A stretch of 5,063 nucleotides of DNA, taken from IMG/VR virus record IMGVR_UViG_2778261276_000004, one strand, 5' to 3'. The notes below the pieces were generated by a model. The model had not been told where the DNA came from and searched no databases. It saw nothing but the letters and a program-made list of their open reading frames with translations. Made by a program: the position numbers and the translations under genes. The stretch is from a virus. Taxonomy: Duplodnaviria > Heunggongvirae > Uroviricota > Caudoviricetes. Shown piece after piece: positions 2,883 to 4,577 of this stretch (position 1 is its first letter; each line of letters starts with the position of its first letter).

Positions 2883-3067
2883 GACCTCTCTTCTCTAACT
2901 AAGGCACCGAACTAAGAAAAGTTTGGTGTTTTCTCTTGCCATAATAACTAAGTTAAGTTAGATTTTATATCAAAGATAACGAACAGGCAGGACGCCCACG
3001 AAGTAGCCGCCTGGGGCATATGAAGTCCAGGATGATTCGTTGAGTCATGTTGTGCCACTAGGCACTC
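2883..3067 (+). promoter_or_regulatory. OL/PL-like operator-promoter region downstream of cI
   Basis: AACTAAG recurs at 2897-2903, 2910-2916 and 2946-2952. The 14-mer ctaagttaagttag (2948-2961) matches the OR site ctaagttttattag at 11 of 14 positions. Plus-strand promoter candidate: -35 TTGCCA (2936-2941), 17-bp spacer, -10 TAGATT (2959-2964), with the operator overlapping spacer and -10. Hairpins at 3015-3036 (CCTGG...CCAGG) and 3052-3065 (GTGCC-acta-GGCAC) lie in the leader. Confidence 0.45.
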
Positions 3068-3088
3068 ATGTTAAAGCAGGTGTATGAA

Positions 3089-3364
3089 ATGAAAGTCCAG
3101 ATTTTAAACAATAACTGTGAAGTCGTTTGGTCATACGACATAGCCGCCCCTGTAGATCAGAGCGGCGATAGCTGGACCAATGGGAAACATCAGATTATGG
3201 CTGGAGTTGTGTTCTCTTTACGCCGTGCTTTGGAACAGGCTGAAGTATTTCCATCAGACCCTGAATGGAAATGGCCTTTTTCTATTTGTCCAAATTCGGA
3301 GAGCACATTTCAGAAAATTGGTCAGAAAGTCGCACTCGAAGAGCATCAGCCAACTGTTTCCTGA
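3089..3364 (+). CDS. hypothetical small protein, first ORF of the early-left transcript
   Basis: ORF track gives 3068..3364. The ATG at 3089 is preferred because AGGTG (3078-3082) lies 6 nt upstream. No arginine-rich motif, so it does not look like an N-type antiterminator. The 3' end overlaps the convergent ORF at 3282..3527 by 83 nt, so one of the two may not be real. Confidence 0.4.
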   Translation: MKVQILNNNCEVVWSYDIAAPVDQSGDSWTNGKHQIMAGVVFSLRRALEQAEVFPSDPEWKWPFSICPNSESTFQKIGQKVALEEHQPTVS

Positions 3365-3527
3365 TTTTTTCAGGTAACTCGTCGGCATCGCAGAAACAAC
3401 AACGCTCGATCATGTTGAAAGCCGATTCGTAGAACTGTTTCTGCTGAGTGTCGCTGAGACAGGAAAAGAGCGACGTTACGATGATTTTATTAATTGCATT
3501 ATCAAGTTCTTTTTCATCAAAAGTCAT
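3282..3527 (-). CDS. hypothetical small protein (81 aa), convergent to the early-left transcript
   Basis: Strong RBS on the minus strand (AAGGAAAA, about 5 nt before the ATG at 3527). Translation is protein-like (MTFDEKELDNAINKIIVTSLFSCLSDTQQKQFYESAFNMIERCCFCDADELPEKIRKQLADALRVRLSDQFSEMCSPNLDK). AT-rich codon usage suggests an acquired accessory gene. Confidence 0.5.
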   Translation of the reverse strand: MTFDEKELDNAINKIIVTSLFSCLSDTQQKQFYESAFNMIERCCFCDADELPEKIRKQLADALRVRLSDQFSEMCSPNLDK

Positions 3528-3699
3528 TTGATTTTCCTTTTATGTATACGGGCTTAAAAGGATACCACCGAGCCTGAAGTGGTGAAAAGACAGGCACATA
3601 ACAGCTAAGTATTTTCAACCAAAGAGAATCCTTAGCGTTGTGGTGAATGCGGCTCAGCGCACGCGGGTTAAGGTTGAGGCTGACAGTCGACCTTCTGTG

Positions 3700-3827
3700 G
3701 ATACCCACCCGCCTGGTGTGCAACCTTCGCCAGGCACCGGGAGGCACCCGGCACCACAACTTTATGCTGTGTGTAGTCTTGGCGGTACCAGTTTGTACCC
3801 TTGCTTCCGGCTGGTATCGCCCTTTTT
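3700..3827 (+). ncRNA. candidate small RNA ending at an intrinsic terminator (possibly DicF-like); 5' boundary undefined
   Basis: GC-rich, hairpin-rich segment with no protein-like ORF on either strand. GGCGGTACCAGTTTGTACCC (3781-3800) resembles, from memory, the GGCGGTATCAGTTTTACTCC segment of E. coli DicF. Its location in the early-left operon of a lambdoid prophage matches where dicF sits in the Qin prophage. Confidence 0.3.
3781..3827 (+). terminator. Rho-independent terminator (plus strand)
   Basis: Stem GGCGGTACCAG (3781-3791) pairs with CTGGTATCGCC (3811-3821), 11 bp including one G-U pair, with a 19-nt loop. It is followed by C then TTTTT (3823-3827). Confidence 0.55.
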
Positions 3828-4040
3828 ACAAAACAGAGAAGAGCATCACCGGACGACGGGCTTATAACCCAATCCATCCGGGCGGCTGCTACCGCAGGTG
3901 TTCTTCTCTGTTTTGTGGAGAAACTAACTGCCCCTGCGGGGGCATTTATGGAAATGTAATTGACTCAATAATCGCCGGACGGTGAGGGCTTCCTTTTACC
4001 CGAATTCAGCGCGGTGCAGCGCATATACGTGGAGAACAAA

Positions 4041-4577
4041 ATGTCATTTATTAAAACTTTTTCCGGGAAGCATTTTTATTATGACAGGATAAATAAAGAC
4101 GACATCGTTATTAACGATATCGCGGTTTCCCTTTCAAATATCTGTCGCTTTGCAGGACATCTTTCACACTTCTACAGTGTCGCCCAACATGCGGTGCTTT
4201 GCAGCCAGCTGGTGCCACAGGAATTTGCTTTTGAAGCTTTAATGCATGATGCAACAGAAGCATATTGCCAGGACATCCCCGCACCACTGAAACGACTTCT
4301 TCCTGACTATAAACGGATGGAAGAAAAAATAGACGCCGTAATCCGTGAGAAATACGGGTTACCTCCTGTTATGAGCACGCCAGTGAAATATGCCGATCTC
4401 ATTATGCTGGCAACCGAACGCCGCGATCTCGGGCTTGATGATGGCTCTTTCTGGCCTGTACTGGAAGGTATCCCGGCAACAGAGATGTTCAAAGTGATTC
4501 CACAGGCACCGGGCCATGCCTACGGGATGTTTATGGAACGTTTTAACGAGTTATCGGAGTTACGCAAATGCGCATGA
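4041..4577 (+). CDS. yfdR: HD-domain phosphohydrolase, YfdR-like 5'-deoxynucleotidase
   Basis: HD motif visible (FYSVAQHAVLCSQL ... EALMHDATEAYCQDIP). The ORF track begins at a GTG at 4014; the ATG at 4041 with GGAG 6 nt upstream gives 178 aa. Gene name is from memory of the K-12 CPS-53 prophage HD-domain protein, not from a search. Confidence 0.8.
   Translation: MSFIKTFSGKHFYYDRINKDDIVINDIAVSLSNICRFAGHLSHFYSVAQHAVLCSQLVPQEFAFEALMHDATEAYCQDIPAPLKRLLPDYKRMEEKIDAVIREKYGLPPVMSTPVKYADLIMLATERRDLGLDDGSFWPVLEGIPATEMFKVIPQAPGHAYGMFMERFNELSELRKCA

Follow-up and report, generated by a model that had tools for sequence, protein, structure and literature searches.

A 5,063-nucleotide (nt) stretch of IMG/VR record IMGVR_UViG_2778261276_000004, a virus of the Caudoviricetes, contains an intrinsic terminator at positions 3781-3827 of its plus strand, ahead of a yfdR gene for which no promoter is apparent. 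This whole stretch is called the window below. The terminator probably forms the 3'-terminal part of an STnc100-family small RNA, predicted at 3637-3827, within an operon that is transcribed from a repressor-controlled early-left promoter (PL), and the genes behind it would be expressed by read-through from PL. We put the probability of this reading at roughly 60%. The window comes from a lambdoid prophage of the SfV/SfII/e14 type and covers its immunity and early region. Prophages in many Escherichia coli chromosomes show 99% identity to it, and the Shigella phages SfV and SfII are 97% identical over 3540-4040. An earlier note on this DNA had recognized the terminator and had proposed that expression of the HD-domain gene cluster behind it depends on read-through, antitermination or RNA processing. 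This logic was right, but the small RNA, the precedent of the dicBF operon and a conserved RNA in the leader of the PL transcript had been missed.

In the terminator, positions 3781-3793 pair with 3809-3821 in a GC-rich stem of 13 base pairs (bp) with a 15-nt loop, followed by C3822 and UUUUU at 3823-3827. The segment 3781-3821 folds with -20.6 kcal/mol as compared with -10.9 +/- 2.3 kcal/mol for shuffled sequences (z-score -4.2), and none of 200 shuffles was as good. A consensus scan missed this terminator, since it permits only loops of up to 8 nt. The hairpin and its CUUUUUAC tail are present in 30 distinct related sequences. Changes in the stem of these relatives are mostly wobble-compatible (G-C to G-U), with a few mismatches at the stem base and one double change from G-C to A-U (sequence L104), in an alignment that diverges too little for a strong covariation test. 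The C and the UUUUU at 3822-3827 showed no variation across 13 of 13 aligned relatives. In Salmonella phage ST64B, the stem is wholly replaced (GUCGGCGUC/GACGCCGAC); its position is kept and CUUUUUAC still comes next. Its stem, folding energy, tail and recurrence in relatives thus bear out the earlier identification, and the 3781-3827 hairpin is predicted to be a real, conserved Rho-independent terminator.

The terminator is the 3' hairpin of a match to the Rfam family STnc100 (RF02076), which spans 3615-3830 and covers model positions 1-206 of 206 (41.7 bits, E = 9.5e-7). Upstream of it lies a structured domain with five internal hairpins (3637-3760; fold z-score -3.9), the closing stem of which is formed by 3637-3645 and 3752-3760 (GUUGUGGUG/CACCACAAC) and which contains an invariant hairpin, CACCGGGAGGCACCCGGCACC, at 3735-3755. 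Domain and terminator are connected by a variable, seed-like, single-stranded tail (3761-3780) in the same position as DicF. Exact matches to the 21-mer CACCGGGAGGCACCCGGCACC were found in at least 120 viral contigs. Among 38 diverse members of this family, the closing stem and the first hairpin covary, with 13, 15 and 4 double changes at closing-stem pairs; the middle hairpins vary among the family contigs, as does a stretch of 20-50 nt behind the domain. An intrinsic terminator, differing in sequence, follows within ~120 nt of the 21-mer core in 77 of 97 distinct family contexts, and many members have a canonical promoter, TTGAC-N17-TAAATT, with its +1 at the closing stem. Because of this combination of promoter and terminator, the members of the family can be considered small-RNA genes. 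Northern blots have confirmed STnc100 and its relatives, the PasD RNAs, as small RNAs that depend on Hfq (PMC8550237; bioRxiv 10.64898/2026.05.13.724894). Together, domain, tail and terminator are predicted to make up an STnc100-family small RNA of ~190 nt (3637-3827, 191 nt). A search for a promoter of its own yielded at best AAGACA-17-TATTTT at 3587-3615, an unconvincing match of 8/12, and none at the closing stem; therefore, the RNA is most likely cut from the PL transcript. A hairpin found by folding directly 5' of the domain (3604-3636, plus strand) is a possible 5' processing site. In some IMG/VR contigs (L013, L063 and L020), STnc100-type genes occur in groups of two or three that span a few kilobases (kb), each gene with its own tail and terminator. 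The small RNA svsR, described in 2026 in an SfV-like prophage, was considered and rejected as a counterpart, as it is encoded at a separate locus, within the 3' end of cI.

The arms of the terminator are almost the same as in the DicF terminator (UUGGCGGUAyCAGUUU ... GCCCUUUUUA). DicF is processed by RNases III and E from the transcript of a DicA-repressed, PL-like promoter, and there is no evidence of an internal promoter in the dicBF operon, in which dicB is located past the DicF terminator (bioRxiv 10.1101/2023.04.14.536235). Filamentation upon derepression is reported to require both DicF and DicB (bioRxiv 10.1101/2023.04.14.536235). In the K-12 prophage Qin, a domain of the type found in phage 2H10 precedes DicF and forms the 5' domain of the 190-nt DicF precursor (L127 2750-3110); hence, the published 190-nt species would correspond to this domain plus DicF. 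An STnc100-type core (34.4 bits) is also present in Qin; it follows the DicF terminator, ahead of the start codon of dicB, and so would serve as the dicB leader. Phage 2H10 shares the closing stem and the terminator with the window, but the interior of its domain differs. A diverged STnc100-type domain extends from the +1 of PL in phage Stx2c_EH0474 and is followed by the same terminator, the same large hairpin as in the window and the early-left genes. Since the domain starts at the +1, the terminator is certainly located between PL and the early-left genes in this phage. The RNA in the window is predicted to be a positional relative of DicF and not DicF itself, since its tail is unrelated and its Rfam DicF score is only 19.7 bits. 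As detected small RNAs have their 3' ends at the homologous hairpin of DicF and at the terminators of stand-alone family members, and given the 13-bp GC-rich stem and U5, it is very improbable that the hairpin does not terminate in vivo and is merely a 3' stabilizer or an Hfq-binding module after processing, even if the 15-nt loop and the C between stem and U-tract are suboptimal for termination.

The terminator indeed lies within the plus-strand path from PL to yfdR, as the earlier note had stated. PL (TTGCCA-17-TAGATT at 2936-2964, a 9/12 match to the consensus) is flanked by operator-like repeats at 2910-2935 and 2946-2971, and everything from PL through yfdR (ATG at 4041) and further is on the plus strand. 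So is the gene for a cI-type repressor at 2256-2882 (Pfam HTH_3 and Peptidase_S24); in an E. coli chromosome of 99% identity, it bears the annotation LexA family protein. At the PL position, relatives of other immunity types carry another promoter, which is stronger (TTGACA-16-CATAAT in SfV and e14). The first gene past the terminator is yfdR (4041-4577), encoding an HD-domain 5'-deoxynucleotidase, and yfdS-like and yfdT-like genes follow. Between terminator and yfdR, a sigma-70 promoter search of 3828-4040 gave a single promoter-like match, TTTATG-16-AATAAT at 3945-3972, with a score of 8/12 that was reached by 249 of 500 shuffles and, hence, is at chance level. The TTGACT at 3960-3965 has no -10 hexamer at a distance of 16-18 nt, and the first early-left open reading frame (ORF; 3089-3364, plus strand) encodes a 91-amino-acid protein of the SfV orf33 type (phrog_3195, a PHROG without assigned function) with only 2 arginines, no Pfam match and no arginine-rich motif as in N proteins. 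On all three points, the promoter, the TTGACT and the N-type motif, the earlier note was correct. Because the terminator is in the PL path and neither a convincing promoter nor N was found, yfdR and the later genes require read-through, antitermination or processing.

The chance-level match could still represent a weak constitutive promoter of yfdR, with the terminator insulating the gene from PL. Its -10 hexamer matches the consensus at 5/6 positions and is conserved in SfV, of which window 3925-4040 is the ordinary yfdQ-yfdR spacer. This alternative is nevertheless unlikely, considering that half of the shuffles do as well and that the -35 hexamer matches at only 3/6 positions. Furthermore, ~50 nt separate the large hairpin from the next ORF in SfV, Stx2c phages and 2H10, so that the genes located there in relatives, such as yfdP and xisE, leave no room for a promoter, and xisE of prophage e14 is induced by the SOS response along with the upstream gene ymfJ. 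Compared with SfV, yfdP and yfdQ are missing from the window owing to a deletion whose junction falls at a pair of similar small hairpins (CGGCCTTGCAGGGTCG and TGCCCCTGCGGGGGCA; in SfV, L002 3880-3930 and 5179-5305). Comparison with SfV and folding locate a small GC hairpin at the deletion junction (3929-3944, plus strand).

Expression of e14 also bears on read-through from PL. This K-12 prophage carries the whole module on the minus strand (L333 = NC_000913.3 1196000-1206000, at 5070-6181), in the order ymfK (cI), an SfV-type PL, the leader RNA element, ymfJ, an STnc100-type domain followed by a DicF-like terminator, the large hairpin, xisE and intE. In chromosome coordinates, the leader element of e14 occupies 1,202,104-1,202,180 and the terminator 1,201,195-1,201,240. 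The e14 copy scores 28.5 bits with the Rfam DicF model. In arrays of an SOS-on hupAB mutant, ymfJ, upstream of the terminator, was induced 41-fold, xisE, downstream of it, 34-fold, and ymfL 48-fold (PMC2634741). The three genes also share one iModulon (PMC12132413). By Reg-Seq, a start site for intE-xisE-ymfH was found only with gentamicin and in one of two replicates (PMC12132413). Co-induction indicates co-regulation and is not proof, but it agrees with read-through from PL and speaks against a tight stop. Since ymfJ and xisE are co-induced across a terminator homologous to that in the window, read-through from PL is the best explanation for the expression of the downstream genes. The annotated e14 coding sequence ymfH overlaps both the non-coding RNA and the hairpin, and it is unlikely to be a gene; this probably also holds for the frameshifted pseudogene C6669_RS29695 (L001; window 3640-3959).

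The large hairpin (3828-3916, plus strand) directly abuts the U-tract of the terminator. It consists of a 20-bp stem with a branched top (-45.5 kcal/mol, z-score -6.65) and is conserved together with the terminator in SfV, Stx2c phages, 2H10, e14 and ST64B; in the latter phage, a compensatory change from G-C to A-U was found. No Rfam family matched it, even when permissive filters were applied. Because of the length of its stem, the hairpin is a plausible candidate site for RNase III, which would separate the small RNA from the downstream mRNA. It is also the downstream stretch with the highest complementarity to the leader element (taken as 2974-3049), with -61 kcal/mol as compared with -34.8 +/- 7.5 kcal/mol for other segments. 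The complementarity has a 13-bp core, and the hairpin read on the minus strand shows the same order of parts as the leader element. A conserved long-range pairing between the two was considered and rejected, as the complementarity is absent in ST64B.

This complementarity might also be regarded as a sign of P4-like immunity, in which termination would be forced by pairing of the nascent PL transcript with the small RNA, or with another RNA, and prevented by a phage protein. P4-like, termination-based immunity was reportedly described for SfV by Roberts, Allison and Verma in 2007 (J Gen Virol), and SfV is nearly identical to the window in the region concerned. We suspect that the SfV immunity paper concerns the C4 region of the early-right operon. 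In SfV, a Stx2c phage and 2H10, adjacent C4 (RF01695) and IsrK (RF01394) RNAs are encoded in that operon (L002 751-939, L125 626-814 and L126 35143-35331, respectively), whereas an Rfam search of the window revealed neither of them nor any other C4/CI-type RNA. In addition, the small RNA is no more complementary to the remainder of the PL transcript than shuffles are, and the complementarity of leader element and hairpin is absent in ST64B, which makes the P4-like mechanism quite improbable. Among the weak or rejected ALTERNATIVES are thus both this mechanism, for lack of excess complementarity and of a C4-type RNA, and the separate yfdR promoter, for its chance-level score.

In our preferred reading, i.e., a small-RNA terminator that is passed by part of the PL transcripts, the following sequence of events can be envisaged. 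In the lysogen, PL would be shut off by the cI-type repressor. Upon derepression, RNA polymerase would start at ~2971 and transcribe the leader element, the 91-amino-acid ORF, the small-RNA domain and the terminator. Part of the transcripts would stop at 3827, and 5' processing would yield the small RNA. The remaining transcripts would pass into the 20-bp hairpin at 3828-3916, where RNase III probably cleaves, and then into yfdR and the xis-int genes, which would have no promoter of their own. That termination is partial is what we infer from this arrangement. As a preferred but unproven addition, the leader RNA at 2978-3041 may raise read-through in the way HK022 putL does.

Several observations weigh against this reading. 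The STnc100 score of 41.7 bits is below the gathering score of 47 for RF02076, and the Rfam DicF (RF00039) score in the window (19.7 bits, E = 0.75) is far from the gathering score of 48. Stand-alone family members yield discrete small RNAs, showing that such terminators can be efficient, and a stem of -20.6 kcal/mol followed by U5 is not obviously leaky. The expression evidence comes from e14 and not from the prophage in the window, and the fold-changes on arrays do not measure absolute read-through and would also fit a co-regulated internal promoter. Finally, the weak -10 hexamer AATAAT (3967-3972) could be part of a low-level promoter.

The leader RNA element (LE; 2978-3041, plus strand, ~65 nt) is located at the 5' end of the PL transcript. 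The earlier note had suggested searching 2965-3090 for nut elements. No boxA-like sequence was found there, but the region does contain a conserved structured RNA, which is not of the boxA/boxB kind. In this RNA, helix P1 (2978-2983 with 3036-3041) encloses a 22-mer core, GGCAGGACGCCCACGAAGUAGC, at 2986-3007 and a hairpin, P3 (3010-3014 with 3027-3031), with a conserved 12-nt loop; a junction, AUGA, is present at 3032-3035. The 97 distinct copies of LE could be aligned without gaps; since the 22-mer served as the search key for them, its invariance within this set of homologues is by construction. However, it is also found without any change in 92 stretches of species-representative genomes from ~25 genera of the Enterobacterales, including Xenorhabdus, Photorhabdus, Serratia, Erwinia and Pantoea. 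In P1 and P3, 94.4% of the cells of the LE alignment are paired, as compared with 64% in shuffles and 18-44% in slid controls, and compensatory changes were found at 10 of the 11 pairs. A covariance model of LE scored 91.5 bits in the window, with one copy per locus, and did not match HK022, 2H10, the Stx2c phage or Qin. No Rfam family corresponds to LE, permissive filters included.

By blastn, LE was found in 51 phage records (Escherichia, Shigella, Salmonella, Klebsiella, Yersinia, Citrobacter, Pectobacterium, Providencia and Aeromonas). Every annotated phage examined has it 100-170 nt past the repressor gene and ahead of the first early-left gene. Of 10 contigs sampled, 8 encode a CI-type helix-turn-helix protein in the ORF immediately upstream of LE. 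A clear promoter was recognized in 47 of 99 contexts, with the -10 hexamer ending 12-23 nt ahead of the element, and in 36 of the 99, a stringent intrinsic terminator follows within 1.5 kb. Although promoters and operators differ among these phages, the PL transcript is conserved over its initial ~75 nt. In mEp237-like and Gifsy-like phages, an STnc100-type domain starts 10-100 nt past LE (L131 2560-2640; L136, L138, L188 and L237), and many leaders of these phages share a second conserved box, (G)AGAUUAACGCGCAGCAGGU.

An invariant core between freely covarying flanking helices suggests contact with a conserved host machine. LE is a putative put-like antiterminator: it could fold on the nascent PL RNA and render RNA polymerase resistant to termination at 3781-3827 and at later terminators, as putL does, in which case the 3' end of the small RNA would be made mainly by processing at the large hairpin. 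This possibility, to which we give well under even odds, overlaps with the reading preferred here and differs in that read-through would be efficient and dependent on LE. Its appeal stems from the position of LE shortly past the -10 hexamer and next to a CI-type repressor gene, from the strong covariation of both helices around the 22-mer, and from the stringent terminators that follow in 36 of the 99 contexts. No N-like family was found among the first early-left ORFs of four LE-containing phages. The nearly equal induction of ymfJ and xisE in e14 would also fit efficient read-through, and a put-like RNA has been guessed at by specialists for N-less relatives, phage LLS among them (PMC12315714; 2025). 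However, LE has no sequence or model similarity to HK022 putL/putR, it is present as a single copy, without a second, PR-side copy in the window, and 2H10 and Stx2c_EH0474 have the same terminator, large hairpin and genes but no LE. For these reasons, antitermination by LE is kept as a hypothesis beside the main claim, the more so as conservation alone does not reveal the binding partner of LE. Homology of either LE or the STnc100 domain to HK022 putL/putR was rejected, as the hits obtained by blastn do not overlap and HK022 is missed by the covariance model; by eye, only short motifs are shared with put, i.e., CGAAC(A)GGC and CAGGAUGA.

Several further features are present in the window. The minus strand carries cro (1958-2158), a CII-like gene of the ymfL type and an O-like replication gene, within which direct repeats of GATTTTGACGGGTCAGA at 640-720 look like origin iterons; a match to mir-5880 at 640-720 was rejected as spurious, since it is produced by these repeats. 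A convergent antisense ORF on the minus strand (3282-3527, 81 amino acids, phrog_3311) is crossed by PL transcription and overlaps the ORF at 3089-3364 by 83 nt; both proteins belong to PHROGs of unknown function, and a homologous convergent pair is annotated in Yersinia phage YeP1. A search for tRNA and tmRNA genes in the window was negative.

Given the dicBF precedent, an STnc100-family RNA with a DicF-type terminator in a PL operon is in itself an ordinary finding. With it, the puzzle of a terminator ahead of promoterless genes largely dissolves: as in dicBF, derepression would yield the small RNA and, at the same time, expression of the genes behind it through read-through. The design of a small RNA within the PL operon is widespread, K-12 e14 included, and through it STnc100/PasD, DicF and the dicB leader can be seen as components of a single modular family of RNAs. 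Since the xis and int genes lie behind the terminator, their expression, and hence prophage excision, would depend on read-through. The leader RNA raises the interest of the system, because it allows the question of early antitermination in lambdoid phages without N to be addressed in K-12 e14 and offers a concrete candidate for how these phages pass their early terminators. Tentatively, LE may represent a new class of cis-acting processive antiterminator RNAs, put-like in function and unrelated in sequence. If so, N-less prophages of the Enterobacterales (SfV, e14, ST64B, Gifsy-like, mEp237, ZF40 and those of Yersinia and Xenorhabdus) would use LE to proceed from PL through small-RNA terminators to the recombination and xis-int genes, and the 22-mer GGCAGGACGCCCACGAAGUAGC would be the surface contacting RNA polymerase or a Nus factor.

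The RNA in the window resembles STnc100 and PasD in its full-length model match, the invariant CACCGGGAGGCACCCGGCACC hairpin, the covarying closing stem and the variable tail followed by a terminator. It differs in its first hairpin, which is a GCGGC/GCGC variant instead of CCCCC/GGGGG, and in lacking a promoter of its own, whereas most members of the family are stand-alone genes that have one. With DicF and the dicBF operon of Qin, it shares a repressor-controlled PL-like promoter, a ~120-nt domain closed by stems of the GUUGUGG/CCACAAC type, a short tail and an intrinsic terminator, and the position in a PL-type operon, past a structured domain and ahead of genes without a promoter of their own. 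In contrast, its tail, i.e., the seed sequence, is unrelated to that of DicF, the domain ahead of DicF in Qin is of the 2H10 type, with the STnc100-type domain following the terminator, and the window has the 20-bp hairpin past the terminator.

The P4 CI and P1 C4 RNAs are likewise small RNAs encoded in the leader of an operon that they could control, but the window has no RF01695 match and no complementarity of the seqA/seqC type. As in lambda, where N and nut serve this purpose, early-left terminators must be passed on the way to xis and int. However, no N-like protein and no arginine-rich motif were found, the leader contains no boxA, and P3 of LE, with 5 bp and a 12-nt loop, is not a boxB-type pentaloop. 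LE can also be compared with HK022 putL, the only well-understood RNA-only antiterminator; put RNAs counter termination through the zinc-binding domain of the RNA polymerase beta' subunit. Both are structured RNAs (~65 nt in the case of LE) with which the PL transcript of a lambdoid phage lacking N begins, ahead of terminators. Apart from the lack of detectable similarity and the single copy, they differ in topology: put consists of two stem-loops and a triplex, whereas LE is built from a closing helix and an internal hairpin around its invariant 22-mer.

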